DNA of 64,000 nt from a virus (IMGVR_UViG_3300034103_002265), one strand, 5' to 3'; positions 34,572-60,397 are shown, counted from the stretch's first letter. Notes: generated by a model not told the origin, from the letters alone. A program made the numbers and translations.

Positions 34572-35420
34572 ATGAAAATTAAAATTGTATCAGATCTGCA
34601 TCTAGAATTCAGTGACATCAACATCAAAAATGATGAGGATGCTGATCTCTTGATTTTATCCGGGGACATCATGATTGCTCACGATCTTTATGAGCATCCG
34701 GAAACCAGTTATGGCATGTACAGCAATGTTAACCTTGCTGACCTCGGCCGTAGGCAACAAACTGCTCTACGTTTTAGAGATTTTCTAAAGCGGGTCAGTT
34801 TCCAATTTCCTCATGTTATCTACGTAGCAGGTAATCATGAATTCTACCATTTCAGGTGGAATCAAACGTTAGAGGTTCTTCGAAATGAATGTGCAAAGCA
34901 CCCTAACATCTATTTTTTAGAAAATGATGTTAAGGTGATCGATGATGTTACGTTTGTCGGCGGAACACTTTGGACCAACATGAACAAAGGAGATCCAATA
35001 ACTCTACATGCTGCTAGAGATATGATGAATGATTTTCGGTTGATCAGAAAGGAAGACCTAGGATTTACTAGAGTTAAACCGATTGATACTTCAGTTCGGC
35101 ATAAAAAAACTTTAGACTATGTCAAACTAATAGTCGAATTAGATCCGACTAAAAAGTATGTTGTAGTTGGACACCACAGTCCAAGTTTTTTGAGTTGCCA
35201 TGAAATGTACAAAAATGATTATCTTATGAATGGCTGCTATCACAGCGATCTCAGCGAATTCATTTTAGATCATCCACAGATCAAATTATGGACTCATGGA
35301 CATACTCATCATCCTTTTGATTATGTAATCGGTGAAACTCGTGTAATTTGTAATCCTCGTGGTTACGAAGGATACGAGCCTGACAACGGTTGGGATGTGA
35401 ACAAAATTGTTGAGGTGTGA
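34572..35420 (+). CDS. Metallophosphoesterase (calcineurin-like)
   Basis: DLH, GDIM, GNHEF and GHTHH motifs. Start at MKIKIVSDLH. Confidence 0.7.
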   Translation: MKIKIVSDLHLEFSDINIKNDEDADLLILSGDIMIAHDLYEHPETSYGMYSNVNLADLGRRQQTALRFRDFLKRVSFQFPHVIYVAGNHEFYHFRWNQTLEVLRNECAKHPNIYFLENDVKVIDDVTFVGGTLWTNMNKGDPITLHAARDMMNDFRLIRKEDLGFTRVKPIDTSVRHKKTLDYVKLIVELDPTKKYVVVGHHSPSFLSCHEMYKNDYLMNGCYHSDLSEFILDHPQIKLWTHGHTHHPFDYVIGETRVICNPRGYEGYEPDNGWDVNKIVEV

Positions 35421-35649
35421 AGGAATAGAAATGATTAATTTAGAAGCAGCAAAAATAACAGCTAAAATTGTTGGAAAAACAATTGGCGTTATAGGTTCCT
35501 ATATTTTACTTTTTTATGTGCTGTTTAGCATATTTGACTTTTACGGGATCCTTGCTGGGCTTGTTATAATTGCACTGTCTTTATCTGTTAAAGTAATTTA
35601 CGAAACAGAAAAATCAAAAATTGAGTTTAAAAATCGAATTAAAAATTGA
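35407..35649 (+). CDS. Small membrane protein
   Basis: 80 aa with one or two TM segments. Confidence 0.4.
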   Translation: MLRCEGIEMINLEAAKITAKIVGKTIGVIGSYILLFYVLFSIFDFYGILAGLVIIALSLSVKVIYETEKSKIEFKNRIKN

Positions 35650-35753
35650 CAACTTCAACAGATTCTTGTATAAATATATTTGTAGGACGCCGATAGGGTC
35701 CTACAAATGGGCAAGGTGCCCAAATTGATTCTTGCTTAAAAAGGAGAAAAACT

Positions 35754-36176
35754 ATGAATCAACTCGCACGTTTCGATACATCTGCTCTAAACAGAGCACT
35801 TATTGGATTCGACAGAATTTTTAATGATTTTGAAAATCGCTTCCAACATTCCACAACAAACTACCCACCTTACAACATAATCAAAACAGACGAGAATACG
35901 TTTGAAATTGAAGTTGCCGTTGCAGGGTTTGACCGAGAAGATATCGTCATCGAAATCGATCAAGATCAATTACGTGTTAGAGGTCAGCGCAAGCAAACAG
36001 AAGATGTAAAAGAATACCTACATCGCGGACTTGCTGCTAGAGATTTCGAGCGCACATTTACTCTTGCAGAGCATATTATTGTGGGTGAAGCAGAATTGAC
36101 CAACGGTATCCTTCGTGTTAAACTAACAAGAGAAGTTCCAGAATCACTGAAACCAAGGTTAATTTCTATTAAGTAA
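35754..36176 (+). CDS. Small heat-shock protein (Hsp20 / alpha-crystallin)
   Basis: ACD-like core ...FEIEVAVAGF...GILRVKL; RBS aaaggag. Confidence 0.85.
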   Translation: MNQLARFDTSALNRALIGFDRIFNDFENRFQHSTTNYPPYNIIKTDENTFEIEVAVAGFDREDIVIEIDQDQLRVRGQRKQTEDVKEYLHRGLAARDFERTFTLAEHIIVGEAELTNGILRVKLTREVPESLKPRLISIK

Positions 36177-36182
36177 AGTAAA

Positions 36183-36207
36183 TACGGGGAGTAATCCCCG
36201 TATTTTA
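36183..36207 (+). terminator. Rho-independent terminator
   Basis: atacgggga-gtaa-tccccgtat followed by a T-run. Confidence 0.8.
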
Positions 36208-36219
36208 AAGGATCAGACA

Positions 36220-36537
36220 ATGGCTACCGAACATATTATTGAACAAGAATCTAAGGTAATTAGAAAAAATTCCGAAAAAATTAAAGAACCAGAAAAATTT
36301 AAAGTTATCGTGTGCAACGATGATGTTACTCCTATAGAGTTTGTTGTTTCAATGCTGATTGCAATATTTAGATATAATCAAAAATCTGCACTAGATCTAA
36401 CTATGCAAATTCATCACAAAGGTAGTGCTATAGCAGGAATTTTTCGCTATGAAATTGCAGAGCAAAAAGCCATAGACGCAACCAATCTTTCTAGATCACA
36501 TGGCTGGCCTTTGATAATTAAGATAGAACAAGAATGA
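36220..36537 (+). CDS. clpS: Clp protease adaptor ClpS
   Basis: FKVIVCNDDVTPIEFVVSML...QIHHKGSAIAGIF is colinear with E. coli ClpS ([20 protein letters not shown]...AVHYQGKAICGVF). Confidence 0.85.
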   Translation: MATEHIIEQESKVIRKNSEKIKEPEKFKVIVCNDDVTPIEFVVSMLIAIFRYNQKSALDLTMQIHHKGSAIAGIFRYEIAEQKAIDATNLSRSHGWPLIIKIEQE

Positions 36538-36545
36538 GGAAATAA

Positions 36546-37091
36546 ATGGTACTAAAGGACTTGACAGCAGAAAAACATAAAGAAGCCGAGTCTACACCAT
36601 TCATGAAGGCAGTGTTTAAAAAGACACTGCCTTCGTCATTATGGGCAGACTGGACTTATCAAAAATCATTATTTTATCATGCGATAGAAGGTTCTGCAGG
36701 ATCCTGCGGGCTTTTAAATGATTTACCAGATATTCGCAGAGCATTTTATTTGTATGAAGATTTTCAGGAATTATCAAATGGAAAATTCTCAGTAGAATAT
36801 CGAAAACCTGTATTAGATTATTACTCATACATTATGAGCATTTCTAAGGAACCAAAACGTATTATGGCTCACCTTTATGTATGGCACATGGGAGATATGT
36901 TTGGCGGACAAATGATCAAAAAAATAGTACCTGGGCCACACAGAAATTTAGAATTTAAAGATATTCAAGTACTAATGACTAATATTAGAGCAAAACTAGA
37001 CGACTCGATGGCCGAAGAAGCCAACTGTGCCTTTGATTGGGCAATTAAAATGATGAGAGATTATGACAGTAATTTGGAACAACATAATTAA
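36546..37091 (+). CDS. Heme oxygenase
   Basis: N-terminal LKDLTAEKHKEAESTPFMK, and LYVWHMGDMFGGQMIKK resembling the HO motif YTRYLGDLSGGQVL. Confidence 0.75.
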   Translation: MVLKDLTAEKHKEAESTPFMKAVFKKTLPSSLWADWTYQKSLFYHAIEGSAGSCGLLNDLPDIRRAFYLYEDFQELSNGKFSVEYRKPVLDYYSYIMSISKEPKRIMAHLYVWHMGDMFGGQMIKKIVPGPHRNLEFKDIQVLMTNIRAKLDDSMAEEANCAFDWAIKMMRDYDSNLEQHN

Positions 37092-37743
37092 TTTAGCAGA
37101 AACATTAAAAGAAAAATTCTCTGCAACGGGCAATTGCTACTCAAGCGAAAAAGATAACGGATGGGATAACTATCTTTATTCTAGTAGTTTATATAGAAGA
37201 GCACATATAGAGATTGTTGATTTTAGGGAAACTCATAAAATCTACATTTTACACAGTACAATATTCCCACATTATAACGATTCTAGTCCAATATGGGGAT
37301 TTGATGCTGTGTGTGGTCCAAATAAAATAACTGGTGCTTTTCATGATTTTAGTAACGGTGGAGAAAATACTCATTTTATGATGAAATGGTTTGCGGAAGA
37401 AACTATGCATTACGGTTGGCGAAAACCTAGAGATTTACCGCCCTGGGCAAAGGCTATTTTTAGCCCAAGCATGATTGCTGCCGGTAATATACAAGAAGGC
37501 GAAGAACTTGACGATCTTTGTAAAATTGCTAATAAAAGTGTCGATTACTATTTGAGTAATGTAGGCACGACCCAAAATTGGCCCAATGACTTTCACATGG
37601 TTCAAAATAGGTATTGTCATTATCAAAAGCAAAATCCCCATGTAGTTAATAGTATGATGGCTATGGGAATACCGGAAGAAAAAATAAAAAAATTCGTAGA
37701 CGAAGTTTTGTTCCCAGAAACAAAAGAACTAAGTTATGCATAA
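37063..37743 (+). CDS. Ferredoxin-dependent bilin reductase (PcyA/PebS/PcyX family)
   Basis: Family-typical regions ...ILHSTIFPHY... and ...FDAVCGPNKITGAFHDFS... Overlaps the end of the heme oxygenase gene by 29 nt. Confidence 0.7.
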   Translation: MTVIWNNIINLAETLKEKFSATGNCYSSEKDNGWDNYLYSSSLYRRAHIEIVDFRETHKIYILHSTIFPHYNDSSPIWGFDAVCGPNKITGAFHDFSNGGENTHFMMKWFAEETMHYGWRKPRDLPPWAKAIFSPSMIAAGNIQEGEELDDLCKIANKSVDYYLSNVGTTQNWPNDFHMVQNRYCHYQKQNPHVVNSMMAMGIPEEKIKKFVDEVLFPETKELSYA

Positions 37744-37774
37744 ATATTAAACTGTTAAAAACTAGGGCATAATA

Positions 37775-38866
37775 ATGCGAGCAAAAGAATTTCTTCACGA
37801 AGTAGACGCCAATGTTGCAAAAGTTCAATCGAATATTGTAGATAAAGTTAACACTATCTTCGATATAGATGAATTAAATCAAATTTATTCGTATGTCCGT
37901 AAAATTGATTTAGGAACTGGTTTTGAGCCTATTTTTAGCAAAGATGAAGATTTAAAACAAATTCAGGGTGTACTCAGCAGATCTATCATTGATGCAAAAG
38001 CCACTTTTGAAGAAAAACTAGAATTTGCTAAAGAAATGGCAACCACTGGAATTATTGATATAAACCAGTTGTTAACTCCGGGTGTTAAACAAAATTTGCA
38101 AAGTGTTGTTAAAACTAACTTTCCCAATATATTCAAGCAAATTGCTTCCGATATCTTAAACATTTCTGGTTCTTTTTTATCGGGAACTAAAAAAACAAAT
38201 AGAGGCAAGGGAGAATTTTTCCTAGCCATTGCTAGCCCTTTTATTTCGATGGCCAAAGGAGCCGGTGATCTTGATATCAATACTGGCAAGAATTCAATGG
38301 CAATAGAAGTAAAAGCAGATTTAGGAAGATTAAAAGGAAGAAAAGGTTACGGAACAACCGACACCGCATATAGAGAGATAAAATCAAATAGCAAACTTTT
38401 TCTAAAAAACAACATAAAAGAACCAGAAGGACAGGTAAACAAGCAGCATCCAGATTTTATTGTTACTTTAGGAGCCAAATCTAATTTTTGGTCTCAGTTT
38501 GGTCCCTATTGTATTCAACATGGTGTTGATCCGGGACTGGTTTCCTCTTTTATTAAAAGTCAACTAGAAATTGTAGTACGATCGTTATATATTAATTTAG
38601 ATCGAGAATCAATGGATAGTATGCTTACATCAGTTGATGAAACAACTGGAGTAGTTGATTTTAAAGCATTATCGCCTGCTGTAAAAGTAGCAGCATTTAC
38701 TTATTATCAACAGTCAGACGGATTTGACGGTTTGTTGTTAATTAACGGTGATTCATTAAATTTTATGTACATTCCAGATGCTACAACTTTCCAGCAGTCT
38801 GCTAGATATGCTAGATTAGGTTTTGAAGTTGGACAACAAAACGGAATGCAAGTTACAATTTCTTGA
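37775..38866 (+). CDS. Hypothetical protein
   Basis: 363 aa ORF. Confidence 0.45.
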   Translation: MRAKEFLHEVDANVAKVQSNIVDKVNTIFDIDELNQIYSYVRKIDLGTGFEPIFSKDEDLKQIQGVLSRSIIDAKATFEEKLEFAKEMATTGIIDINQLLTPGVKQNLQSVVKTNFPNIFKQIASDILNISGSFLSGTKKTNRGKGEFFLAIASPFISMAKGAGDLDINTGKNSMAIEVKADLGRLKGRKGYGTTDTAYREIKSNSKLFLKNNIKEPEGQVNKQHPDFIVTLGAKSNFWSQFGPYCIQHGVDPGLVSSFIKSQLEIVVRSLYINLDRESMDSMLTSVDETTGVVDFKALSPAVKVAAFTYYQQSDGFDGLLLINGDSLNFMYIPDATTFQQSARYARLGFEVGQQNGMQVTIS

Positions 38867-38878
38867 TTAAATACGTTT

Positions 38879-39250
38879 ATGGAAATCCTTGCTCTTTTTA
38901 CATTATTGCAAATAAAGCACTACTATGCTGATTTTGTAATACAAACATATGAACAAACCGTTCGTAAGGGTATCTATAGAGATTGGGTAGGGATCAGTCA
39001 CAGCCTAGATCATTTATCGGCCACACTTTTTATCTTAATAATTTTTAATTTTTTTGTTCCTCTTTCGGTACTAGCAATTTTAAGCATCGCATTGTTTGAG
39101 TTCGTCTGCCATTATCACATTGATTGGTTCAAGGTTCATTATGGATGCAAAGATATGACCAGAGGCCTATTCTGGAACCAATTTGGATTAGATCAACTAG
39201 CACATCAATTGACATATATTTTAATGGCTTGGTATTTACTACTGTTATAA
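38879..39250 (+). CDS. Hypothetical membrane protein
   Basis: 123 aa, hydrophobic. Confidence 0.4.
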   Translation: MEILALFTLLQIKHYYADFVIQTYEQTVRKGIYRDWVGISHSLDHLSATLFILIIFNFFVPLSVLAILSIALFEFVCHYHIDWFKVHYGCKDMTRGLFWNQFGLDQLAHQLTYILMAWYLLLL

Positions 39251-39292
39251 TTTCATACAACTGCTCCTTAAATATTAAGTATAGGAGCCACT

Positions 39293-39751
39293 ATGAAATA
39301 TATTATTGTAACACTATGTATAGTCTCGAGCATGTCACATGCAGCCGAGATAGTTCATCAATTTAATAGTCCCAGTTTTTCTGGTATCGGTTTCTCCAGT
39401 CATGCATTGACAATTTACACACAGGAATTAAGTCGTAAATTATCATTGAACGCTGAAAAGAAAGCCGAACTGCTTAAAGCAGAACAAGACGCAAAAAACA
39501 CTACAATGGCTAAATTTATCTCGAATTTAGAATCGAGAGTATATAATGAATTGGCCAGACAAATTACTGAAAAACTTTTTGAAGGTACAGGAACACAGGC
39601 AACTGGAAAGTTTGCATTTAATGGTGGAAATATCGAATACAAAAAGTTAGGCAGCATTTTAGAAATTACCATTACCGACGAAAACGGTAATATTACAACT
39701 ATGACCGTACCAATTGGTGATTTTGGTTGGTTGGCACCAACAGGAGGATAA
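39293..39751 (+). CDS. csgF: Curli assembly component CsgF-like
   Basis: Signal peptide, then VHQFNSPSFSG (E. coli CsgF: TFQFRNPNFGG). Confidence 0.55.
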   Translation: MKYIIVTLCIVSSMSHAAEIVHQFNSPSFSGIGFSSHALTIYTQELSRKLSLNAEKKAELLKAEQDAKNTTMAKFISNLESRVYNELARQITEKLFEGTGTQATGKFAFNGGNIEYKKLGSILEITITDENGNITTMTVPIGDFGWLAPTGG

Positions 39752-39752
39752 T

Positions 39753-40550
39753 ATGAAAAAATTATTGTTATTAACTTCGGTGCTATTAATTACTACAGGA
39801 TGTGCATCTTTGAATTACACTGTTCAAGGATATGACGAACCTGTAGTTACAAAACCATTTGTAAAATCTGAAGAAGGATTAAAAGGGCCAGCAAATGGCC
39901 AAATACCAGTAGCAGTTTACAACTTTAGAGATATGACCGGTCAACGAAAAGCCAGCCAAACAATTGCTAGTTTAAGTTCGGCAGTTACACAAGGCGCAGA
40001 TGCTTACCTTGTTAAAAGCCTACAAGAAATTGGCGGTGGCAAATGGTTTAAAGTATTAGAACGAGGAGGTTTAGATAATCTTATTAAAGAAAGACAGTTA
40101 ATAAGACAAATGAGAGAACTATATCAAGGAAAGGATGCACAACCACTACCCCCAATGTTATTTGCTGGTATGATTCTAGAAGGAGGAATCATAGGTTATG
40201 ACAGCAATTTGTTGAGCGGAGGAACAGGCGCACGAATTCTTGGAATCGGAGCAACAACTGAATATCGTCAAGATGAAGTTACTATCAGTCTTAGAGCGGT
40301 GAGTGTAGCAACTGGTGAAGTTTTAGTTGCTATTAATACAACAAAGACTGTTATAAGTTTCCAAGATAAGGCCGGAATTTTACGTTTCTATGATGCCGGC
40401 ACTAGGGCATTAGAATTAGAAACAGGAAATGCAACAAATGAATCAATGAATAAAGCGGTACAACTTGCAATACACGAAGCGGTTGTCGCAATGATTCATA
40501 AAGGTGCAGAGAATGGCCATTGGGGCTTTAAAACAGAAGAGAAAAAATGA
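39753..40550 (+). CDS. csgG: Curli secretion channel CsgG family lipoprotein
   Basis: Lipobox ITTGC and CsgG-like body (VAVYNFRDMTGQ...GGLDNLIKERQL...GYDSNLLSGG). Start at MKKLLLL after RBS aggagg. Confidence 0.8.
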   Translation: MKKLLLLTSVLLITTGCASLNYTVQGYDEPVVTKPFVKSEEGLKGPANGQIPVAVYNFRDMTGQRKASQTIASLSSAVTQGADAYLVKSLQEIGGGKWFKVLERGGLDNLIKERQLIRQMRELYQGKDAQPLPPMLFAGMILEGGIIGYDSNLLSGGTGARILGIGATTEYRQDEVTISLRAVSVATGEVLVAINTTKTVISFQDKAGILRFYDAGTRALELETGNATNESMNKAVQLAIHEAVVAMIHKGAENGHWGFKTEEKK

Positions 40551-40718
40551 GTTGGTTTAGACGAACACCTCACTACAAGGAAGAACCAAAACATTTACCT
40601 CATAAAAAAAGAAGCCCGATGGCAGAAGAAATTATTCGACAGATAGAAGAAATTCGGTCAACATCGAATAAAAATCCTATTAATAATGATAAGGATAGAA
40701 AAAAGGAGCGAACCTAAA

Positions 40719-41393
40719 ATGTTAAGAAAGATAAAATTATCTATTCTTGCTAGCATGTTGTTTACAGGTATTGCATTTGCTGATAACTCAGTTTATATAC
40801 AGCAATCTGGAAATAGCAATACTGTTACAATTACACAAGTTGGTAGTACCAATAGAGTAGGTGCAAGTGGAATTGGAAATCAAAGCATTATTAACGGATC
40901 TAACAATAATTTGTCTGTTACTCAAACAGGAGCAGGCAATATGTTAGATTATGATGTTGTTGGTAATGGAAACACAGTTACAAAAACCGTAACTGGAGAT
41001 ACTAATCAAATCACTTTCACCTGCGGCGACGGGACAACTGGTTGTACCAATGTAACTAGCACAATGTCCTTGCAAGGAAATAATAATACAATTACAAGTA
41101 CTTTGAAAGGAAATAGTATTAATAATACATTGAATATTACAGGTGATAACAATTCAGTAACACAATCTATACTTACTAGTCTAAGTACAAGCCAAATTAC
41201 TATATTAGGTGATAGTAATCTTTTTACATCTAGTATGTCAGGTGCTGGTGCAGGTCTAGGTCATAGTTTAGTTGCTGCTGTTACTGGAACAAGCAATAAT
41301 CATTCTGTGACACAAAGTGGAACTGTTAATACCAGTGTTACTATAACAACCACAGGTAATAGCAATACTGTAACAATTAATACTGGCAATTAA
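40719..41393 (+). CDS. Curlin-repeat secreted protein (CsgA/CsgB-like amyloid subunit candidate)
   Basis: Signal peptide, then imperfect repeats of the type SGNSNTVTITQVGSTN / GSNNNLSVTQTGAGN (S-x5-Q-x-G-x-x-N). Confidence 0.6.
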   Translation: MLRKIKLSILASMLFTGIAFADNSVYIQQSGNSNTVTITQVGSTNRVGASGIGNQSIINGSNNNLSVTQTGAGNMLDYDVVGNGNTVTKTVTGDTNQITFTCGDGTTGCTNVTSTMSLQGNNNTITSTLKGNSINNTLNITGDNNSVTQSILTSLSTSQITILGDSNLFTSSMSGAGAGLGHSLVAAVTGTSNNHSVTQSGTVNTSVTITTTGNSNTVTINTGN

Positions 41394-42481
41394 TGAAATT
41401 TATTTGTTTATTATTTTTCTTTTTGTTTTCAACAAACGTATTTGCAATCGGTAAAATTACCGAAGTGCAAGGATCTGCTGTTGAAATAAAAAGAGGAAAA
41501 AACACAATTAAAGGGTCAACGGGCACAACTATCGAATCAAACGATGTTGTGTCCGTTGGATCTGCTAGTAAAATTACTATTACATTTGAAGATAGTTCAA
41601 CTGCAAAAATTTCTGAAAATAGTAAATTAATAATCGACGACTTCGTTTATGATCCCAATGGAAGAAGTAAAAGCAGTATGCGTGTTGGATTAGGAACTGT
41701 TCGAATGGCTAGTGGTGGCATCGCTAAACAAGATTCTAAAAATGTAAACATAAGAACACCTACTGCGGCAATTGCAGTTCGTGGAACAGATTTTGCAATG
41801 ACTGTAGATGAACTTGGTCGCAGTACCGTTGTACTATTGCCAACTTGCAAAAATGATCAAGATGCTCAACGAGTAGAACTTCCTGGAAATTGCACCTGTG
41901 GAAAAATTGATGTAGCGACATCTGCTGGAGTAGTTAGTATGGAAAGTCCGTTTTATGCAACGCATGTTTCTGCTGCTCAAGAAACTCCAACAATTCCGGT
42001 AAGAGTCGATCCGACAATCATGAATGTTAGCGGAGAAGGCAGTTTAAATAAACCGCATCAAGTTGCCAAAGTTGTAGCGGAACATCAAGAAAAGAAAGAA
42101 TCACACAAAGATCGAAGTAAAGCCAGTGCTGATGAACAAAAGGCTGCTAAAGATAGTGGTAAAGAAGTTGATAAGAAAAAAGCAGAATCAGAGAATGATG
42201 CTATAAAAAAGGCATCGGCTGGGGAGTTAAGTGAAATTAAAGTTGCTACAGCAGAAGAAACAAAAATAAATCCTTGTTGGCCTTTTACTAGTTGCGGAAC
42301 TGAAAAAGGATTCAATTGGTATGAACATATTGATCCTTTACGGGGCAACACAATACATGTCAGTACTCTTGAAACAAACGACAACACTACCTACAACATC
42401 AGCGTTAATAATGTTGATATCAGTCAGAAGATAGTAGGCAGTGGAACTAATCACGTTACTATACGACAATGGAACAGATAA
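41393..42481 (+). CDS. Secreted hypothetical protein
   Basis: Signal peptide MKFICLLFFFLFSTNVFA; 362 aa. Confidence 0.45.
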   Translation: MKFICLLFFFLFSTNVFAIGKITEVQGSAVEIKRGKNTIKGSTGTTIESNDVVSVGSASKITITFEDSSTAKISENSKLIIDDFVYDPNGRSKSSMRVGLGTVRMASGGIAKQDSKNVNIRTPTAAIAVRGTDFAMTVDELGRSTVVLLPTCKNDQDAQRVELPGNCTCGKIDVATSAGVVSMESPFYATHVSAAQETPTIPVRVDPTIMNVSGEGSLNKPHQVAKVVAEHQEKKESHKDRSKASADEQKAAKDSGKEVDKKKAESENDAIKKASAGELSEIKVATAEETKINPCWPFTSCGTEKGFNWYEHIDPLRGNTIHVSTLETNDNTTYNISVNNVDISQKIVGSGTNHVTIRQWNR

Positions 42482-44385
42482 TGTTTGGTGCTAGATTAAA
42501 ATATTGGTCTTACCTTTTTGTAGCAGTATTTTTATTACTTTTGAGCAAATTAACATATGCTCAAACAATTAGCAATGGATTAAATTACACTACATATCTG
42601 CCCACATCTGGCGGGTGGACTAGTCCCAACAGAGACTTATTAACACCTTTGACTTCTGGAACAGTATTAAATTTAGATTATAATTGGAACTATGTTTTAG
42701 ACAGCGGAAGAAATGATGGAGTTGTAGTTAAGTTTACAGGTTACTTTAAAGCAGACGCAGCAGGAACATACACATTTGGTATTACAGGTGACGATGGTAT
42801 TGAACTAATAATAAAAAATCAAACAGTTATAAGTTATTGGGCAGATCAAGGACCTACTCTAAGATCTGGATCAATTACTTTAGCAGCAGGAGAAGTAGTT
42901 CCTGTAACAATTTGGTTTTATGAAAACGGCGGGGGCGCTACATTAAGATGGTATCAGCAGATCAACGGAAGTTGGGTAATTGTTCCAACAACTAGTTTAG
43001 CAACTAGCGAAGCCTATTGGGGACCGCAGACTATTTCTACTGCTAATTCTAATATGGGATTCGAAACTAGTACACTACAAAATTGGACTGCTAATAGAGC
43101 AGGAACACAAAATAGTTCTAATTGGGGTTCGAGCGGAGTCGGTGCTAGTGTAGTAACAGGTATAACAAATTTTACACCAGGTGATAATAAAACATGGACT
43201 GTAACACCTTATGGCACATATATGGCTTCTTTGCAGCCCGGTCCTGGCGATGTATCATTTGATCAAATGACCATTGATCTTGGACTAACTTCTGGTGAAG
43301 TAACTGAAATTAAAAATGTTATTGCTGCTCAAGCAGCAGCAGCAGGAGGAGACCCTAATCCTACAGATGCTACATGGTTACGTAGAACAGTATCTTTAAA
43401 ATCGGGTGTTACATATACTATTGCATGGCAATATATTTCAACAGATTACGTTCCATTTAATGATGGAAGTATTATGGTACTGAGACATGCTACTGATGCT
43501 ACAAAGATACCAACACTAAACAATGAACAAAAACGATATGCTTTGTTAGGTTTTACAAATCCCAATACCGGCAATTACAGCGTAGGTAGTTATGGCGCAA
43601 CAGGATGGCAAGTTGCTGTGTTTACTGTGCCCGTTGATGGTGATTATGTTATAGGGTTTAGTTCTTTTAATTTAGGCGATACTGCACTAAGTCCTATTTT
43701 GTTAATAGATGAAATACAAGGAACAACATTACTGAACGGACAACCATTTGCTCCGGTACCACCAAATCCAGGATCTTCTAGTCCCAGTGCAGGACCAGTG
43801 TTATGTTGTGGTGGAAGTGCTAATCAATTTACAGCAAACTCTGCATTCAGTAATAGGGTAACTGGATTTATTGCGAATAATAATGTAGACAATCGAGTTA
43901 TTATTCAACAAATTGGAAATAATAACAATATTACAGTTACACAAAGTGGTAGAAAAAATTACAGTGAAATAGAAATAACAGGGTCTAATAATTCAGTAAC
44001 TACAAATCAAACTAGCAATTCTAATACTTTAGCAAACTACAGTGAATTATATATTTCTGGTAGCGGAAATACAGTTAGTTTAACGCAGTCTAGTACAGGC
44101 GGGAATAAAGGAATTTATGTAACGACAGCAGATTCAACAAATAATATAACTATAAATCAAAGTGGTTCAGGAAATCATTATTCTGAATTAAATTTACTTG
44201 GCGGAAACAAGACTGTTAATATAAATCAAAGCGGAAGTGTAGGGCATATGGCCAAGGTAGAACTAAACGGCGGGTCTACTTCTATTAATGTTACGCAATC
44301 TGGATCTACGCAACAATTTTATTCTATTACTCATAACTGTGCTCAAATAAGTTGTTCTGCCATTACAGTTACACAGGGCCAATAA
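42469..44385 (+). CDS. Secreted PA14-domain protein with C-terminal curlin-like repeats
   Basis: PA14-like GYFKADAAGTYTFGITGDDGIELIIKNQ. C-terminal repeats VTQSGRKNYSEIEITGSNNSVTTNQTSNSN...NINQSGSVGH. Confidence 0.55.
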   Translation: MEQIMFGARLKYWSYLFVAVFLLLLSKLTYAQTISNGLNYTTYLPTSGGWTSPNRDLLTPLTSGTVLNLDYNWNYVLDSGRNDGVVVKFTGYFKADAAGTYTFGITGDDGIELIIKNQTVISYWADQGPTLRSGSITLAAGEVVPVTIWFYENGGGATLRWYQQINGSWVIVPTTSLATSEAYWGPQTISTANSNMGFETSTLQNWTANRAGTQNSSNWGSSGVGASVVTGITNFTPGDNKTWTVTPYGTYMASLQPGPGDVSFDQMTIDLGLTSGEVTEIKNVIAAQAAAAGGDPNPTDATWLRRTVSLKSGVTYTIAWQYISTDYVPFNDGSIMVLRHATDATKIPTLNNEQKRYALLGFTNPNTGNYSVGSYGATGWQVAVFTVPVDGDYVIGFSSFNLGDTALSPILLIDEIQGTTLLNGQPFAPVPPNPGSSSPSAGPVLCCGGSANQFTANSAFSNRVTGFIANNNVDNRVIIQQIGNNNNITVTQSGRKNYSEIEITGSNNSVTTNQTSNSNTLANYSELYISGSGNTVSLTQSSTGGNKGIYVTTADSTNNITINQSGSGNHYSELNLLGGNKTVNINQSGSVGHMAKVELNGGSTSINVTQSGSTQQFYSITHNCAQISCSAITVTQGQ

Positions 44386-44409
44386 ATATAATTTTAAGGA
44401 GAAGCCACT

Positions 44410-44736
44410 ATGAAAAAAATAGCAGTGGCGTTCCTATTCTGCTTGACCAGCACCATAGCCAACGCCCAGGGTACTAGTGAATTTAGACAAGTTAATAAGC
44501 CAGTTGTATGTGGTCCTATAGAAACTATACTTAAACATCTTACAGGTCCCGATGTTCGAGAAATGCCCTTTTGGACAGGAAAAGACGATAGTAGGATAGG
44601 AGAATACATGGTTCTTATTAACCCCAAAGATGATACATTTACAATCATACAATTTTCAGATAAAATAGGATGTATCGTAGGTATGGGAAACAAGAACAAT
44701 TTTTTTAAAATTCAGCAAAATTTACAAAGATTGTAA
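44410..44736 (+). CDS. Small secreted protein
   Basis: Signal peptide ...TIANAQG; 108 aa. Confidence 0.4.
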   Translation: MKKIAVAFLFCLTSTIANAQGTSEFRQVNKPVVCGPIETILKHLTGPDVREMPFWTGKDDSRIGEYMVLINPKDDTFTIIQFSDKIGCIVGMGNKNNFFKIQQNLQRL

Positions 44737-44797
44737 CAGTACTGTAATCTTTCTCTGCTAATATAATTGTAAATAATTTTACAACAAGGAGAAAGAT

Positions 44798-45811
44798 ATG
44801 AAAAAGTTATTTGCATTTATTGCAGCATTTGCTCTAAGTACATTTGCATTTGCATCTGATATCACTGGAGCAGGCGCTACATTTCCCTACCCAATTTACG
44901 CTAAATGGGCAGAAGCCTATAAGAAAGCCACCGGAGTCGGTCTTAACTATCAAAGTATTGGTAGTTCAGGAGGTATCCGACAAATCAATGCTAAGACTGT
45001 GACATTTGGTGCAACAGATGCTCCAGTTAAAGGTGAAGAACTTGATCGACGCGGACAAGTTCAATTTCCTGCTATCATCGGCGGTACTGTACCGGTAGTT
45101 AACCTAGATGGATTTAAGCCAGGCGAATTGCGTATTACTGGTACGATCCTTGCAGAAGTTTTCATGGGCAACATTACAAAATGGAACGATCCAAAATTAG
45201 TTGCAATTAATCCAGGAAAGCGTTTGCCAGATCAAAATATCACTGTAATACATCGTGCGGATGGTAGTGGTACTACGTTTAATTGGACTGATTATCTAAC
45301 AGTGGTTAGTCCAGAATGGGCTCAGAGAGTGGGTCGAGGCGCTGCTGTGAAGTGGCCGGCTGCTAGTTCAGTAGGCGGTAAAGGCAATGAAGGAGTTGCT
45401 GCTAATGTAAACAGAATTAAAGGTTCTATTGGTTATGTTGAGTATGCCTACGTTAAGAAGAATAATATGAATTTCATGTTGTTACAAAACAAATCTGGTA
45501 AGTTTGTTGCTCCGGATGATGCAGCATTTGCTGCGGCTGCAGACGGCGCTGACTGGTTTTCAGTTCCGGGTATGGGTTTGAGTATTGTAGATCAAGCCAA
45601 TCCTAATGCTTGGCCAGTTAGTTCAGCAAGTTTTATTATTATGTACAAAGATCCTGTAAATAAAGAACAAAGTCGTGAAGTCTTAAAGTTTTTTGATTGG
45701 GCATTTAAAAACGGTAAACAGGCAGCATTAGAATTAGATTATGTTCCATTACCAGACAGTCTGACACAACAGATTCGACAGCGTGTTTGGACTCAAATAA
45801 ATAACAAGTAA
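44798..45811 (+). CDS. pstS: Phosphate ABC transporter substrate-binding protein PstS
   Basis: GAGATFPYPIYAKWAEAYKKATGVGLNYQSIGSSGGIRQI. Confidence 0.85.
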   Translation: MKKLFAFIAAFALSTFAFASDITGAGATFPYPIYAKWAEAYKKATGVGLNYQSIGSSGGIRQINAKTVTFGATDAPVKGEELDRRGQVQFPAIIGGTVPVVNLDGFKPGELRITGTILAEVFMGNITKWNDPKLVAINPGKRLPDQNITVIHRADGSGTTFNWTDYLTVVSPEWAQRVGRGAAVKWPAASSVGGKGNEGVAANVNRIKGSIGYVEYAYVKKNNMNFMLLQNKSGKFVAPDDAAFAAAADGADWFSVPGMGLSIVDQANPNAWPVSSASFIIMYKDPVNKEQSREVLKFFDWAFKNGKQAALELDYVPLPDSLTQQIRQRVWTQINNK

Positions 45812-45825
45812 ATCGCCTACAAAGA

Positions 45826-45880
45826 TAGAGTAGGGCTGGAATTCGTAACCAGCAGTAGGGCCGCAAGGCTCTATTTTTTT
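45826..45880 (+). terminator. Long hairpin terminator
   Basis: atagag...ctctat followed by T7. Confidence 0.6.
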
Positions 45881-45892
45881 GGTAAATAAAAG

Positions 45893-46654
45893 ATGCGAGC
45901 AACAGAGTTTATTACAGAAAAAAAACACAAAAAGCAAAAGACAAAACATGCTGCTTACGGACCGGGTCCATATGGATGGTATGGTTTTGATTCAGGATAT
46001 AGCGGTGATGGGGGCGGTATTGAAGAAAGTCAACACGATCAATCAGCAGAAAAATACCGTGAACATTTAATTAAGACATTGCCACAGATAATGAAGTTTT
46101 TTGACCAAGCCGTTAAAGGCTGGAAGCCTTCTGAGGAACAAATGATGGCTGCTATCGAAACTGCTTATACTGTAATGAAGCACACCGGAGATATAAAACA
46201 AGCAGGCCGTGCAATGATGGATGAATTAAACACTTTGCATAGAATGAGTCAGGGTCAGCAAGGTGTGGCGGAAAGTGGAAATAAAAAAGAAGCAGTTCGT
46301 CGAATACAAAAAATGTTAAACAAGAAATTTAATGCTAATTTAGATATTGATGGTATTCTAGGGCCTCTTACACTGCAATCGATAAACAAATTTATGCCTA
46401 GTGCAAAGGTGGGGCTTGCTGACGAGCCGAATAAAACTACATCTGTTCAGGGTAAAACTATTAAAAAGAAAGATATAGAGGAAAACTTTGCTGATGGTCG
46501 AAATCCTCAAGACAAAGGAGATGCAAAGCGACACGGAATTAATACCAAAGCATCTGTAAGTAGCCTACGTAAAACTGCTAAACAAGGTGGTCGTAAAGGA
46601 CAGTTAGCACATTGGTTAGCAAATATGAAAGCAGGAAGAGCCAAGGCTAAATGA
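45893..46654 (+). CDS. Protein with a peptidoglycan-binding domain
   Basis: LDIDGILGPLTLQSINKFM (PG_binding_1-like) and a Gly-rich N-terminus. Confidence 0.45.
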   Translation: MRATEFITEKKHKKQKTKHAAYGPGPYGWYGFDSGYSGDGGGIEESQHDQSAEKYREHLIKTLPQIMKFFDQAVKGWKPSEEQMMAAIETAYTVMKHTGDIKQAGRAMMDELNTLHRMSQGQQGVAESGNKKEAVRRIQKMLNKKFNANLDIDGILGPLTLQSINKFMPSAKVGLADEPNKTTSVQGKTIKKKDIEENFADGRNPQDKGDAKRHGINTKASVSSLRKTAKQGGRKGQLAHWLANMKAGRAKAK

Positions 46655-48702
46655 AAAAAATATTGTTAAACCCGTGGACAGCACTTATTACTTTGATGCT
46701 AGTTGTGGGTGTTAGATTTTTAGATCCTAGTTTTATAGAATCAGTTAGATTGCGTTATTTTGATCAATTGATTATAAGTCAACCCGAAAAGCCTGTTCCT
46801 GTACACACTGTTAATGTCGATGAAGCAGCATTAGAAAAATATGGGCAATGGCCTTTTCCTCGAAACCTATATGCAGAAATTATTAAAGAATTATACAATA
46901 GAGATGCTGGTCTTGTTGTTTTTAATGTATTAATGCCAGAAAAAGATAGATTTAATCAAGATAAAACTTTAGCAGAAACAATTAAAGAATATCCTGTAGT
47001 ATTACCTGCTCTAGGAAGCACCAAAGGAAAAAATACTGATCATGGCAGTTCAGTTCAAATTGTAGGACAAGATCCTAGTGGAAAAATTGTAGAGTATCCT
47101 GGATTAATTAATAGTGTAGATCAAATTTCTAAACTAGCACTGGGAATCGGAATTGCTAATACATTTCCAGAAATAGATGGTGTAGTGCGTAGGATGCCGT
47201 TAATCATTATTGCAGGTGGTAATGTTCATGCTGCATTAAGTTTAGAAACATTGAGAGCAGCAGGAGATGATAAAATTCAAGTAAAGATAAATGACATCGG
47301 TGTAGAAGCAGTTAGAATTCCCAGTGTTGGAAGATTTAATACAGATGACTTATCTAGAATATGGATCGATTGGGCAGCAAAACCTCAAGAACATAGTCTT
47401 GCAAATTTACCTAGAAGTTTTGATAAAGGCATAGTTGTAGTGGGTTTGAGTGCAGCAGGTTTAGTAAATCCGATAGCAACTGCTCGAGGAGAAGTTTGGC
47501 CTCAGTATTTGCAGGCCAGTGTAATGGGAACTATGCTATCTGAATCGAGTATTCAGCGTCCAGGATATGCAGATACATATGAAATAATTGCTATCATAGT
47601 AGCAGGCATAATTTTAATATTTTTAATGAGGTGGACATATGTGGGCATTGCGGCAACTGTGGTTACGATTGGTGGGGTTATTGCTGGCAGCATTTATTCT
47701 TACAGTAACTTTTCAATACTATACGACTCAACTGCCTTTGCAGTTGGCGTTGGATTGGTCGCTTTGCACGCCTACATGGTCAAGTTCGTTTCAGAATTCT
47801 TACAAAAACAACAGATCAGAAAACAGTTCCAAAGTTACCTTAGCCCCGACCTCGTAGCCAAATTGATCAAAGATCCTAGCCTATTAAAACTCGGAGGTGA
47901 AGAAAAAGAACTAAGTATCATGTTTACTGATGTTCGAGGATTTACCAGCATCAGTGAACATTATGGTAAAGATGTGCAAGGTTTAACAAAAATTATGAAT
48001 CGCTATATGACAGCGATGACTCGTAAGATTTTAGAAAATGATGGAACCCTAGACAAGTACATAGGTGATGCACAAATGGCATTCTGGAACGCTCCTTTAG
48101 ATGAAACACAACATTGTAAGGATGCAGTAAAAGCAGCATTGGAAATGTTAGATGACTTGGATAAATTTAATGATGAAATTACCAAAGAAGGTATTCCGGC
48201 TTTTGGTATGGGTCTTGGTATTAATACTGGCATTGTTGTTGTTGGTAACATGGGCAGTGAGCAACGTTTTGATTATACTTGTCTTGGCGATGCTGTCAAT
48301 CTTGCTTCCCGACTTGAAGGACAGTCTAAAAACTACGGTGTCAAAATTGTTCTGGGTCCCGTAACTGCTGAACGCTTAGGCGATGATTACTTTACACTTG
48401 AGTTAGATTGTATAGCCGTTAAGGGAAAAAAAGAAGGTGTAACAATTTATACTGTATTCCGAAATCCTAATGCAGGTTCTATACCAGAATGGATAATGGC
48501 TAAAGAGAAACATAATGAAATGTTAAAACTCTATAGACAACAAAAATGGGACAAAGCAGTTGGATTAGTTAACAAACTTCAGGGAGAATTCGATGGACAA
48601 ATGGAACACTATTATGAGTTATGGATCGAACGCATTGAAGAAATGCGTAGTGCTAACCTTCCTGGTAATTGGGACGGCGTATTCAGAGCCCAAAGCAAGT
48701 GA
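46651..48702 (+). CDS. CHASE2 sensor / class III adenylate (nucleotidyl) cyclase
   Basis: N-terminal TM plus CHASE2-like periplasmic region. Cyclase core FTDVRGFTSISE...YIGDAQMAFWNAP...GINTGIVVVGNMGS...GDAVNLASRLEG. Confidence 0.8.
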   Translation: MKKILLNPWTALITLMLVVGVRFLDPSFIESVRLRYFDQLIISQPEKPVPVHTVNVDEAALEKYGQWPFPRNLYAEIIKELYNRDAGLVVFNVLMPEKDRFNQDKTLAETIKEYPVVLPALGSTKGKNTDHGSSVQIVGQDPSGKIVEYPGLINSVDQISKLALGIGIANTFPEIDGVVRRMPLIIIAGGNVHAALSLETLRAAGDDKIQVKINDIGVEAVRIPSVGRFNTDDLSRIWIDWAAKPQEHSLANLPRSFDKGIVVVGLSAAGLVNPIATARGEVWPQYLQASVMGTMLSESSIQRPGYADTYEIIAIIVAGIILIFLMRWTYVGIAATVVTIGGVIAGSIYSYSNFSILYDSTAFAVGVGLVALHAYMVKFVSEFLQKQQIRKQFQSYLSPDLVAKLIKDPSLLKLGGEEKELSIMFTDVRGFTSISEHYGKDVQGLTKIMNRYMTAMTRKILENDGTLDKYIGDAQMAFWNAPLDETQHCKDAVKAALEMLDDLDKFNDEITKEGIPAFGMGLGINTGIVVVGNMGSEQRFDYTCLGDAVNLASRLEGQSKNYGVKIVLGPVTAERLGDDYFTLELDCIAVKGKKEGVTIYTVFRNPNAGSIPEWIMAKEKHNEMLKLYRQQKWDKAVGLVNKLQGEFDGQMEHYYELWIERIEEMRSANLPGNWDGVFRAQSK

Positions 48703-48937
48703 TAAACCTTTTAAAGTTTGTCCCGAAATAGTAACAGCAAAAGATACCCCTTGTCGAGTTTTAGGTCCTACTGTTGCCGTTGTTAGCAGAATGGAAATTG
48801 AAGATAAAAAAGACAAAGAAATAAAAGAATTAAAAGAAAAGATTAAAATACTAGAAGAAGAAATCAAATCTTTAAAAAATATTAAACCAAATGTAGATGT
48901 TGAAAAGCCTACTACAACTAGAGCAATACGAGGATGA
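48593..48937 (+). CDS. Hypothetical coiled-coil protein; start uncertain, overlaps the cyclase 3' end
   Basis: KEIKELKEKIKILEEEIKSLKN. Confidence 0.3.
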   Translation: MDKWNTIMSYGSNALKKCVVLTFLVIGTAYSEPKASDKPFKVCPEIVTAKDTPCRVLGPTVAVVSRMEIEDKKDKEIKELKEKIKILEEEIKSLKNIKPNVDVEKPTTTRAIRG

Positions 48938-49091
48938 AAAATCTTTACGAAGATTGTTGGTTCTGGTGGTTTGATGAATCGGTTAAAGTATTTTTAACGT
49001 ACTATTACTGGCCTAATTTTGTAATAGGCAATGCCGACGAATGGATTAAACTGGGCGTAACACTGAATGGAATACGCCCTATTTGTAAACC

Positions 49092-49508
49092 TTAATCACC
49101 GGAAGCGTTTTTAATTTCTTCAGCAGTGGCCTTTCTGCCCTTTGCTCCGCCAATTGATTTTTCTGATTCTAGTTGTTTCTTCTCTGCTTCACGTTTTGCT
49201 GCTTCTTCTTCTCTGCGTTTCTTAAATGGATCTTCGTTAATATCTTGTTCTGCTAGTATACGTTCTTTATCAATTGTTTTACCGCGTAATTGCAGTACAG
49301 TTTCAACTTTTTGATTTAATCTAATTAAATCGTTATCCAGCATACGTATACGATCGATTAAAGCAATTAGTGTCCCATTGGCTTGACTAATAACAGGCTT
49401 AATAACTGTAGTTACCCACTTCCATACAAAGTAGATAAAATATCCCATGCCGGCGGCACTAACAATAGGAAATCCATATTTGCCTATTAAATCTGCTACA
49501 TTATCCAT
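49092..49508 (-). CDS. Membrane-anchored coiled-coil protein (DUF948-like), paralog A
   Basis: N-terminal TM GFPIVSAAGMGYFIYFVW followed by a coiled coil. Confidence 0.45.
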   Translation of the reverse strand: MDNVADLIGKYGFPIVSAAGMGYFIYFVWKWVTTVIKPVISQANGTLIALIDRIRMLDNDLIRLNQKVETVLQLRGKTIDKERILAEQDINEDPFKKRREEEAAKREAEKKQLESEKSIGGAKGRKATAEEIKNASGD

Positions 49509-49795: not shown

Positions 49796-49853
49796 TTTTA
49801 AATTATTTAATCACTTAATATTAACCAATAAATAGTACTTTAATTAAAATTGA

Positions 49854-60309: not shown

Positions 60310-60316
60310 GATATTT

Positions 60317-60391: not shown

Positions 60392-60397
60392 AACAAT

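Follow-up and report, generated by a model that had tools for sequence, protein, structure and literature searches.

Gene modules of the order csgF-csgG-curlin-fecR-curlin-CHASE2 adenylate cyclase are annotated in Pelagibacter phage HTVC008M and in Methylophilales phage Melnitz. Viral type VIII secretion systems (T8SS) were described in 2020-2022, in pelagimyophage MAGs (Zaragoza-Solas 2020), in HTVC023P-type podophages (Wittmers 2022) and in Melnitz (Buchholz 2022). The module kind is already known from marine SAR11 and OM43 phages. Marine versions are expressed in metatranscriptomes (PMC9599517), and freshwater fonsimyophages were reported to be devoid of the operon (Zaragoza-Solas 2020). 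Roles in matrix formation, aggregation and phage exclusion have already been speculated on in the literature.

We analysed a stretch of 64,000 nucleotides of viral DNA (IMGVR_UViG_3300034103_002265, hereafter the window). A preliminary description had placed five consecutive genes at 39293-44385, encoding, in a phage context, a CsgG/CsgF channel and two candidate amyloid cargo proteins, one of which carries a PA14 domain; the roles that it suggested agree with the earlier speculation. The five ORFs were confirmed at these coordinates, all on the + strand, and the channel and cargo assignments held at all points considered in silico. In particular, CsgG (PF03783), CsgF (PF10614) and Curlin_rpt (PF07012) were all detected over the Pfam cut-off, and the Pfam assignments of the module proteins were all above curated cut-offs (Table 1). 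Every exported component carries a signal peptide or a lipobox, as read from the sequence. The layout had to be revised in two points. The genes are not strictly consecutive, because the 56-aa orf56 overlaps the csgG stop codon (ATGA). Moreover, the module does not end at 44385, the conserved set running on to the CHASE2 adenylate cyclase.

The carrier is a large T4-like phage. It encodes rIIA (phrog_612 match, E 1e-132) and rIIB, together with 26 tRNAs and one tmRNA. An identical csgG, in the same gene order, was found on a Lake Mendota contig; the origin of the phage is freshwater, Lake Mendota. The module order recurs in HTVC008M, Melnitz and about 60 IMG/VR viral loci. As in the window, the pelagiphage and Melnitz modules lie in a T4-like myophage setting; they also lack CsgE, CsgC and CsgD, none of which was found among the scanned window ORFs. 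The CsgG proteins of HTVC008M/Melnitz-type modules are 47-49% identical to that of the window. The second curlin of HTVC008M also combines PA14 and Curlin_rpt, but the window cur2 is larger than the marine second curlin and has an additional CBM-like domain. The window further differs from the marine modules by orf56 between csgG and cur1, by pstS, orf108 and orf253 before the cyclase, and by an upstream Hsp20-ClpS-heme oxygenase-bilin reductase group that is syntenic 5′ of the module in the close clade. Podophage modules have a histidine kinase before csgF, whereas the published myophage modules and the window do not; in the window, the genes upstream of csgF are one for a membrane protein with DUF3307 and an ORF of 363 aa in which Pfam recognises no domain. 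Overall, the locus is a curli (type VIII) secretion module of the pelagiphage kind, carried by a large T4-like phage from freshwater, and we consider it rather probable that it makes fibres by the mechanism proposed below. A member from a freshwater lake may go beyond the published accounts of phage curli.

Table 1. Features of the module and of the genes inserted in it (window coordinates).
Feature	Description	Coordinates	Strand	Basis
Module	csgF-csgG-curlin (cur1)-fecR-like-curlin (cur2)-CHASE2 adenylate cyclase	39293-48702	+	Pfam
csgF	secreted CsgF-like channel cap/nucleation adaptor, 152 aa	39293..39751	+	Pfam CsgF
csgG	outer-membrane lipoprotein channel, 265 aa	39753..40550	+	Pfam CsgG
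orf56	small basic ORF, 56 aa, without signal peptide	40547..40717	+	read from sequence
cur1	secreted curlin-repeat protein, candidate fibre subunit, 224 aa (~203 aa mature)	40719..41393	+	Curlin_rpt
fecR-like	secreted FecR-domain protein, 362 aa	41393..42481	+	Pfam FecR
cur2	secreted PA14 + CBM-like beta-sandwich + curlin beta-solenoid, 634 aa	42481..44385	+	Pfam, AlphaFold model
orf108	small secreted protein	44410..44736	+	signal peptide, close-clade homologues
pstS	phosphate-binding protein, with terminator-like hairpin	44798..45875	+	PBP_like_2 E 4e-36
orf253	lineage-specific ORF; stop overlaps cyclase start	45893..46654	+	weak phrog_2649 match
Cyclase	CHASE2 membrane sensor + class III adenylate cyclase, 683 aa, conserved last module gene	46651..48702	+	Pfam

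The curli genes of E. coli and Salmonella (csgBAC-csgDEFG) share with the window the CsgG channel, the CsgF N-terminal peptide and secreted Q/N/G-repeat solenoid subunits, and in both systems there are two paralogous repeat proteins. In contrast, no CsgE, CsgC or CsgD was found among the scanned ORFs of the window, and the CsgG constriction residues differ. One subunit begins with lectin-like domains, and the module, which is carried by a lytic phage and has its genes on a single strand, also includes a FecR-like protein and a CHASE2 cyclase. CsgF matched PF10614 over the whole model (E 7e-16; score 59 bits, cut-off 25.8) as well as phrog_35372 (E 2e-37), while the BLASTP match to E. coli CsgF was weak. 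Right behind its signal peptide (cleavage SMSHA/AE, read from the sequence), the motif E-x-V-H-x-F-x-S-P-S-F-S-G-x-G is invariant in an alignment of phage and Henriciella copies. CsgF thereby keeps an N-terminal F-x-x-P-x-F-x-G peptide of the type inserting into the CsgG barrel; it is comparable to F-R-N-P-N-F-G-G of E. coli.

CsgG matched PF03783 with an E-value of 7e-50, and its residues 1-261 aligned with residues 1-256 of E. coli CsgG structures (E 2e-47). This full-length alignment, and the Curlin_rpt matches of both repeat proteins, removed the concern that the lipoprotein might group with unrelated ones and the repeats might not be curlin. The start at ATG 39753 is favoured by a preceding GGAGG ribosome-binding site, and the lipobox (LLITTG/C) places the cysteine at residue 18. 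In an alignment of 10 viral copies, 58 CsgG columns were invariant. The constriction loop is present, with E. coli Y51/N55/F56 aligning to S/S/L in the window copy and F occupying the F56 position in other viral copies. The preliminary description had asked whether CsgE might lie elsewhere in the genome. No CsgE, CsgC, CsgH or CsgD was detected with Pfam in the module, in the adjacent genes or in those remaining window ORFs that have a signal peptide. CsgE, CsgC/CsgH and CsgD have likewise been described as missing from the modules of alphaproteobacteria and pelagiphages, and are therefore not defining for the wider family.

The lack of CsgE, CsgC and CsgH homologues among the scanned ORFs and the S/S/L constriction count against fibre making. 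The missing CsgE gate and the constriction unlike that of E. coli would fit a repurposed pore, as proposed by Buchholz et al. 2022 and partly by Zaragoza-Solas et al. 2020. CsgG/CsgF would then be an outer-membrane pinholin- or secretin-like lysis timer, or a nutrient or cofactor uptake channel, and the repeat proteins would not be fibre subunits. An uptake theme would suit the FecR-like protein as well as the pstS insertion. In addition, Buchholz et al. observed that OM43 cultures did not clump when infected with Melnitz (PMC9004378), which also weighs against fibres. Nevertheless, we judge a repurposed pore to be quite improbable. CsgF, which is dispensable for pore assembly, is present in 54/54 viral loci, and the repeat proteins argue in the same direction.

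First, the curlin-type repeats claimed for the third gene were recovered in cur1 (ORF 40686-41393; PF07012 E 1e-7; score 32 bits, cut-off 20.7), which has four N/S-x5-Q-x-G-x-x-N motifs and a T/N/S/G-rich composition. The ribosome-binding site favours ATG 40719, giving 224 aa and not 235. Cur1 is 36% identical to the C-terminal repeats of Cur2 (E 3e-8). The NCBIfam matches of both proteins were weak, to CsgB and far under the CsgB cut-off. The slot between csgG and fecR is filled in all 54 viral loci, recognisably by a curlin in 36 of them, and a second curlin is detectable in 28/37; the Melnitz and HTVC008M curlin copies also match Curlin_rpt. These cargo genes count against a pore working without fibre subunits. 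Just upstream of cur1, orf56 is also predicted, with a length of 56 aa, in the gene calls of metagenome contigs; the N-terminus MSWF[KR]RTPH is kept at the same position in the close clade (loci L003, L005-L011, L013 and L062).

Second, the cur2 product (42469-44385) matched PA14 (PF07691, E 3e-17) and Curlin_rpt (E 4e-8). Depending on the metagenome gene call, cur2 starts at 42469 (638 aa) or 42481 (634 aa). The PA14 domain and the curlin repeats had been recognised beforehand in a 638-aa protein, but the eight repeats counted there are about seven in the AlphaFold model (14 strands, residues 471-619). The N/S-x5-Q-x-G-x-x-N motif is exact in three copies and accompanied by degenerate ones. 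Cur2 has the PA14 fold, and its repeats are predicted to fold as a curlin beta-solenoid, for which CsgA was the best non-PA14 structural match. The PA14 domain matches those of sugar-binding adhesins; a GDDG segment is found at residues 100-103 of the 634-aa form (FGITGDDGIELII), and the protein contains cysteine pairs. Judging from the fold only, the heads may bind sugars. In other PA14 adhesins, such as the Marinomonas MpIBP RTX adhesin and the yeast Flo/Epa flocculins, the stalk is RTX/T1SS or GPI-anchored, whereas the Cur2 stalk is a curlin beta-solenoid on the T8SS route. At least 1306 metagenomic proteins belong to the Cur2 family. Their C-terminus is conserved and their heads vary, PA14 and F5/8 type C being among the head domains.

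The structural match to CsgA argues against a repurposed pore, and lectin heads would be left unexplained by a pore alone. It also bears on whether the repeat proteins polymerise. By analogy with capped solenoid adhesins and ice-binding proteins, Cur1 and Cur2 could be exported via CsgG and stay as monomeric beta-solenoids anchored at CsgF/CsgG, without amyloid fibres. Such non-polymerising adhesins appear quite unlikely to us in view of this match, of the CsgA-like repeat regularity and Q/N/G motif conservation, and of the two paralogous repeat proteins, which mirror the CsgA/CsgB logic.

In the fibre mechanism that we propose, the host Sec and Lol/Bam machineries would insert CsgG and CsgF into the outer membrane while infection runs. 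Both curlin proteins would cross the channel unfolded and then fold extracellularly. Cur1 would polymerise into curli-like fibres, which Cur2 would enter via its solenoid, at the end or base, presenting its glycan-binding heads. With these heads on fibres, the infected cell or its debris would therefore become sticky to particular polysaccharides or cell surfaces. Since the heads differ among related phages, binding specificity is probably under selection. Candidate pay-offs are aggregation or host capture, particle attachment, and a barrier against other phages. As a point against fibres, the mechanism requires that the 610-aa Cur2, with two globular domains and cysteine pairs, stays unfolded in the periplasm for a channel of about 1 nm. 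E. coli CsgA has its secretion signal at the N-terminus. In Cur2, this place is taken by the PA14 domain, which also speaks against the fibre model.

The gene between the two curlins, previously given as a further secreted protein, does encode one (cleavage STNVFA/IG); the identity that had been missed is that of a FecR-domain protein (PF04773, E 3e-11). In the alignment, an N-terminal part of about 200 aa is conserved; it is followed by a charged linker that varies and by a C-terminal domain of about 90 aa. The cyclase matched CHASE2 (E 5e-33) and Guanylate_cyc (E 6e-21) in Pfam and phrog_35576 (E 3e-233). Its catalytic domain is closest to Cya2/CyaB, with the Lys in LDKYIGD and the Asp in RFDYTCLGD, and it also matches PycC models (best E 1e-25). 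A Pycsar anti-phage system was considered and rejected: no PADLOC model matched among the scanned genes beside the cyclase, so that no effector was seen nearby, and the CHASE2 architecture with Lys/Asp indicates an ordinary adenylate cyclase.

The FecR-like gene is present in 54/54 viral loci and the cyclase in 36/37 of those reaching far enough, the two co-occurring in nearly all. FecR-domain proteins adjoin CHASE2 sensors in bacteria: the Burkholderia BiofilmReg operon and S. meliloti cyaD1-smc02177 likewise pair a secreted FecR-domain protein with a membrane sensor having a periplasmic CHASE2, and in S. meliloti, as in the phage module, the output domain is an adenylate cyclase of class III. 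Unlike these pairs, the phage pair is split by cur2 and the inserted genes, lies inside a secretion module and is without LysM. By analogy with the bacterial neighbours, the FecR-like protein probably functions together with the cyclase as a periplasmic sensor pair, which would convert an envelope signal into cAMP; it is the gene neighbourhood that suggests a link with secretion.

The same conservation, the bacterial FecR/CHASE2 pairs, the adenylate-type Lys/Asp and the resemblance to Pycsar cyclases could also suit a module that is for signalling first. The cAMP, or other cyclic nucleotide, would reprogram host metabolism, with the T8SS parts as outer-membrane input. In S. meliloti, outer-membrane proteins act upstream of CHASE2 cyclases, which provides the analogy for such an input. 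We hold this explanation to be very unlikely. It leaves unexplained a conserved fibre-type cargo with diversifying lectin heads, it finds no nearby Pycsar effector, and the cyclase is sometimes missing in podovirus versions (PMC9599517).

Among the best 80 bacterial CsgG loci, a sole case of such an operon was found, in a Henriciella sp. MAG (contig CBFICP010000001.1, locus L069). There, csgF-csgG-curlin(504 aa)-fecR-CHASE2 cyclase form one co-directional cluster, with fecR overlapping the cyclase start, and the proteins are 34-46% identical to those of the window. The contig is chromosomal, 397 kb long, of uniform GC (0.48-0.55) and with housekeeping neighbours. In contrast to the phage modules, it is free of phage genes and has a single long curlin, with no lectin-headed curlin separating fecR from the cyclase. 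The other apparent bacterial cases, short contigs in MAG bins, are probably phage-derived. This chromosomal operon may be a second addition to the published accounts. In a wider reading, which we put forward tentatively, as a possibility, Cur2 is a modular, lectin-tipped fibre subunit with exchanged heads. All six genes would derive as a unit from an alphaproteobacterial operon of Hyphomonadaceae-like type, the lectin-headed curlin being added in phages. Heads (PA14, CBM-like, F5/8 type C and two or more unknown domains) would be swapped between related phages like receptor-binding proteins, so that each phage lineage would coat the infected cell with amyloid fibres of chosen glycan specificity, serving new-host capture, attachment to algal or particle polysaccharides, or the blocking of rival phages. 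The FecR-like protein and the cyclase would signal the state of the envelope apparatus as cAMP.

Three genes precede the cyclase in the window. The orf108 product, with a signal peptide (cleavage TIANA/QG), had no match in Pfam, PDB, NCBIfam or PHROG; its gene lies 3′ of cur2 in the close clade only, at the same position in the window and eight other close-clade loci. For pstS, no match was found between cur2 and the cyclase in the other fetched viral loci, nor among the called genes of L147. It is an insertion inside the module and not a part of it, a situation that may also be new relative to published phage-curli accounts. The terminator-like hairpin (45854-45875) is followed by a T-run. 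Finally, orf253 was without a homologue in the other viral loci; a segment weakly resembling peptidoglycan-binding domains is indicated by its weak match to the endolysin PHROG phrog_2649 (E 1e-5, residues 100-170).

The genes of the module are closely packed on the + strand between positions 39293 and 48702. Profile searches were run for CsgG, CsgF and Curlin_rpt, and every Pfam value obtained for the module genes exceeded the curated cut-off. The gene set proposed at 39293-44385 in the preliminary description was thereby confirmed, with CsgF, CsgG, Curlin_rpt (twice) and PA14 above the Pfam cut-offs. Its reading as a CsgG/CsgF export machine accompanied by two curlin-repeat cargo candidates, one of them fused to PA14, was also supported; secretion itself is what we infer from these parts. 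Signal peptides were found at the N-termini of CsgF, Cur1, Cur2, the FecR-like protein and orf108, a small protein encoded directly 3′ of cur2, and CsgG carries the lipobox LLITTG/C. Ribosome-binding sites placed the start codons of csgG and cur1 at ATG 39753 and ATG 40719. The small orf56 product, encoded between these two genes, has neither a signal peptide nor a known family, and its N-terminus MSWF[KR]RTPH is kept across the close clade.

Features of the module and of its surroundings in the window
Feature	Coordinates	Strand	Match or remark
tRNA with CUA anticodon	4938-5012		amber-suppressor type, 'Pyl' according to ARAGORN
tmRNA, permuted, two-piece	6194-6520		tag ANDEVFAMAA
Secreted 149-aa protein	8956-9405		YfaZ outer-membrane protein, E 4e-6
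Ro/TROVE-like RNA-binding protein	within 17244-24531		phrog_850, E 7e-145
NMNAT+NUDIX protein	18793-19821		NAD salvage
NAMPT	23134-24531		NAD salvage
Hsp20, ClpS, heme oxygenase, ferredoxin-dependent bilin reductase	35754-37743		consecutive genes
Upstream flanking ORF	37775-38866		begins MRAKEF
csgF	39293-39751	+	Pfam E 7e-16
csgG	39753-40550	+	Pfam E 7e-50
orf56	40547-40717	+	56 aa, basic; overlaps csgG stop codon
cur1	40719-41393	+	Pfam Curlin_rpt E 1e-7
fecR-like	41393-42481	+	Pfam FecR E 3e-11
cur2	42481-44385	+	Pfam PA14 E 3e-17, Curlin_rpt E 4e-8
pstS	44798-45875		inserted within the module
Terminator-like hairpin of pstS	45854-45875
Lineage-specific ORF	45893-46654		begins MRATEF; weak peptidoglycan-binding-like segment
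CHASE2 cyclase	46651-48702	+	Pfam CHASE2 E 5e-33, class III cyclase E 6e-21
tRNA array	60235-63970	+	26 tRNA genes

The window CsgG could be aligned over its whole length with its E. coli counterpart (E 2e-47). The constriction residues Y51, N55 and F56 of the E. coli protein align to S, S and L; a phenylalanine is found at the F56-equivalent position in other viral CsgG copies. In CsgF, the signal peptide is immediately followed by an invariant segment, E-x-V-H-x-F-x-S-P-S-F-S-G-x-G, which we take to be the counterpart of the E. coli CsgF peptide seated within the CsgG barrel. No CsgE/CsgC-type helper was found among the window ORFs scanned. For a possible role of orf108 as a CsgC-, CsgH- or CsgE-like chaperone, no supporting sequence match was found in Pfam, PDB, NCBIfam or PHROG.

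Using tblastn with CsgG, the Pelagibacter phage HTVC008M and four isolates of the Methylophilales phage Melnitz were recovered at 49% identity. In both phages the annotated order is CsgF, CsgG, a curlin-associated protein, a FecR-domain or hypothetical protein, a curlin-repeat or hypothetical protein and an adenylate/guanylate cyclase. CsgF and CsgG were described in pelagimyophages by Zaragoza-Solas et al. 2020, who proposed 'sibling capture' and reported the operon as absent from freshwater fonsimyophages. Wittmers et al. 2022 (PMC9599517) described both podo- and myo-pelagiphages with the complete gene set, in which FecR, the cyclase and fibre genes of CsgA/B type are included, and showed that the pelagiphage module is expressed and widespread. 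Curli systems encoded by phages are common in ocean waters; one paper estimates them at ~0.1% of assembled viral proteins. The hosts of such phages are described as lacking curli genes. An IMG/VR scan showed the module in 60 loci. Counting only loci of sufficient extent, CsgF and FecR were each present in 54/54 and the cyclase in 36/37, while a curlin gene was recognisable 5′ of FecR in 36/54 and 3′ of it in 28/37. Within the sub-clade L003-L013 plus L062, CsgG is 64-78% identical.

The window itself is of phage origin. It encodes rIIA (phrog_612, E 1e-132) and a ClpX-like ATPase, and metagenome contigs with an identical CsgG show rIIB and the same gene order. Bacterial contamination was ruled out by rIIA and rIIB, by the synteny with phage contigs and by PHROG families for CsgF, CsgG, FecR and the cyclase. 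A two-piece tmRNA is present in Melnitz as in the window, and the rise in GC to 0.45-0.49 at the window end is due to the tRNA array. Since one of the identical-CsgG contigs belongs to the combined assembly of Lake Mendota (JGI 3300002835; PMC5636890), the phage is assigned to freshwater. A near-identity DNA search with positions 36000-48000 gave no match among deposited phage genomes; on the sequences compared, kinship to these genomes is detectable at the protein level only. Overall, the window adds a new representative, from freshwater, to the described viral T8SS family. The presence of the module in a large freshwater phage shows that it is not peculiar to phages of marine SAR11 and OM43.

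A functional T8SS is the most economical reading of the module, and we consider it fairly probable. Host Sec, Lol and Bam would place CsgG and CsgF, and Cur1 and Cur2 would exit unfolded via the channel. Cur1 would then polymerise, and Cur2 would enter the fibre via its solenoid, displaying putative glycan-binding heads. Several observations count against a working T8SS. Melnitz cultures showed no clumping, and a pinholin- or secretin-like pore was proposed (Buchholz et al. 2022, PMC9004378). The absence of a CsgE/CsgC-type helper among the scanned ORFs and the altered constriction also weigh against it, as does the need for a 610-aa cargo containing both cysteine pairs and two globular domains to traverse the channel. 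A pore repurposed from the curli channel is an unlikely explanation of the module in our judgement. If fibres are really made by the T8SS, the stickiness of the infected-cell surface would be altered, which would bear on how often phages meet their hosts and how particles form in the plankton.

Cur1 contains four exact copies of the motif N/S-x5-Q-x-G-x-x-N. Cur2 has three exact copies within its last 165 residues, together with degenerate ones, and its repeat region shares 36% identity with that of Cur1 (E 3e-8). In an AlphaFold model of Cur2, built from 38 input sequences (mean pLDDT 79), residues 34-167 form a PA14 domain and residues 190-420 a beta-sandwich that has a helical insert. A linker modelled with low confidence follows, then a helix at 454-465 and, at 471-619, a solenoid of 14 strands. 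The middle domain was recognised by fold comparison only; PDB sequence searches with this domain, Cur1 and orf108 returned nothing useful. The family is large, with at least 1306 members in a metagenome protein collection.

The second curlin was aligned from 12 phages (the window, HTVC008M, Melnitz and nine of the fetched loci). The C-terminal solenoid, ending in NCAQxSCxAITVTQGQ, is conserved, and the N-terminal portions vary in kind. The head consists of PA14 and a CBM-like domain in the window, PA14 alone in HTVC008M, a CBM-like domain alone in L011 and L012, and a CBM-like domain with F5/8 type C in L009. L003 combines an unknown domain with a CBM-like one; the same unknown domain is joined to F5/8 type C in L006, L010 and L062, and a second unknown domain to F5/8 type C in L005 and L008. 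Melnitz has no head. Pfam detected F5/8 type C in 6/12 and PA14 in 2/12 of these proteins. The variation arises between modules with 67-78% identity in flanking genes. That Cur1 and Cur2 are adhesins which do not polymerise appears improbable to us. 'PA14' is not mentioned in Zaragoza-Solas et al. 2020 or Wittmers et al. 2022, and a literature search combining curlin with 'PA14 domain' returned one unrelated review and nothing else. The shuffling of lectin-like heads may go beyond published phage-curli descriptions. Such differences among close relatives turn a vague idea of 'aggregation' into a testable question of which glycans or cells are bound.

A periplasmic sensor pair would be formed by the FecR-like protein together with the CHASE2 cyclase. 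This proposal follows bacterial precedents: in both Burkholderia and S. meliloti, a FecR-domain protein adjoins a CHASE2 sensor. The cyclase is nearest to Cya2/CyaB-type enzymes; a Lys is found in its segment LDKYIGD and an Asp in RFDYTCLGD. In class III enzymes, a Lys/Asp pair denotes the adenylate type. Among PADLOC models, those for Pycsar PycC also matched the cyclase domain (E 1e-25 at best), and no model matched the neighbouring genes scanned; membership of a defence system was rejected, the match being read as generic class III cyclase homology. The idea that the FecR-like C-terminus (VTIRQ) docks on fibres as a curlin-like strand was dropped, its cross-clade conservation being too weak. 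A chiefly signalling role of the module is very unlikely in our view.

A published statement holds that FecR and cyclase lie outside bacterial T8SS operons. Among the best 80 bacterial CsgG loci, mostly from Sphingomonadales and other Alphaproteobacteria, both were also present on one long contig only, Henriciella sp. MAG CBFICP010000001.1 (397 kb). There, csgF and csgG are followed directly by a curlin-like gene of 504 aa, by fecR and by a CHASE2 cyclase gene (L069, 6466-12489), the last two overlapping. GC is uniform and native, and a TonB receptor, an FAA hydrolase and similar housekeeping genes lie alongside. This operon qualifies the published exclusion, and such a bacterial counterpart may go beyond published phage-curli descriptions. 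Its gene order suggests that the lectin-headed curlin was inserted between fecR and the cyclase gene in phages, and a Henriciella-type cluster is a likely evolutionary source of the viral module. The Henriciella chromosome offers more tractable genetics for asking why FecR and a CHASE2 cyclase accompany secretion genes. Five further loci (L067, L070, L073, L075 and L078), deposited within MAGs of Flavobacteriaceae, Rhodobacteraceae, Polynucleobacter and Pirellulales, were rejected as bacterial examples because their contigs are <11 kb. They carry a phage-type module, L073 and L078 also show the phage-type Hsp20-ClpS-heme oxygenase-bilin reductase synteny, and all five contigs probably come from phages and were binned with bacterial genomes.

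This four-gene block lies upstream of the module throughout the close clade (L003-L010, L013, L062, L073, L078); heme oxygenase and bilin reductase form a gene pair of pigment type, carried here by a phage. Of the T4-type late promoter TATAAATA, the window contains 5 copies, where 7.3 are expected; none lies directly upstream of the module, and the nearest is at 35669, before hsp20. Sigma-70-like sites showed no enrichment. An Rfam scan of 35000-50000 (E <= 0.1) found no RNA family; the csgG-cur1 gap is therefore not a known riboswitch. The ORFs flanking the module have near-identical starts, the NAD-salvage pair lies further upstream, and the YfaZ-like protein is a further phage-encoded envelope protein.

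Between cur2 and the cyclase gene, the window carries two insertions, pstS with its own hairpin and the lineage-specific ORF. In no other fetched module locus was pstS found at this place, and the relative L147 lacks both genes. These insertions may also go beyond published phage-curli descriptions. In marine clades (L014-L060), the same slot holds its own recurrent small ORF families, unrelated to orf108. An example of a ~160-aa family (17 loci) opens with a hydrophobic, signal-peptide-like stretch, and one of a ~95-aa family (14 loci) has a lipoprotein-like hydrophobic leader ending in Cys.
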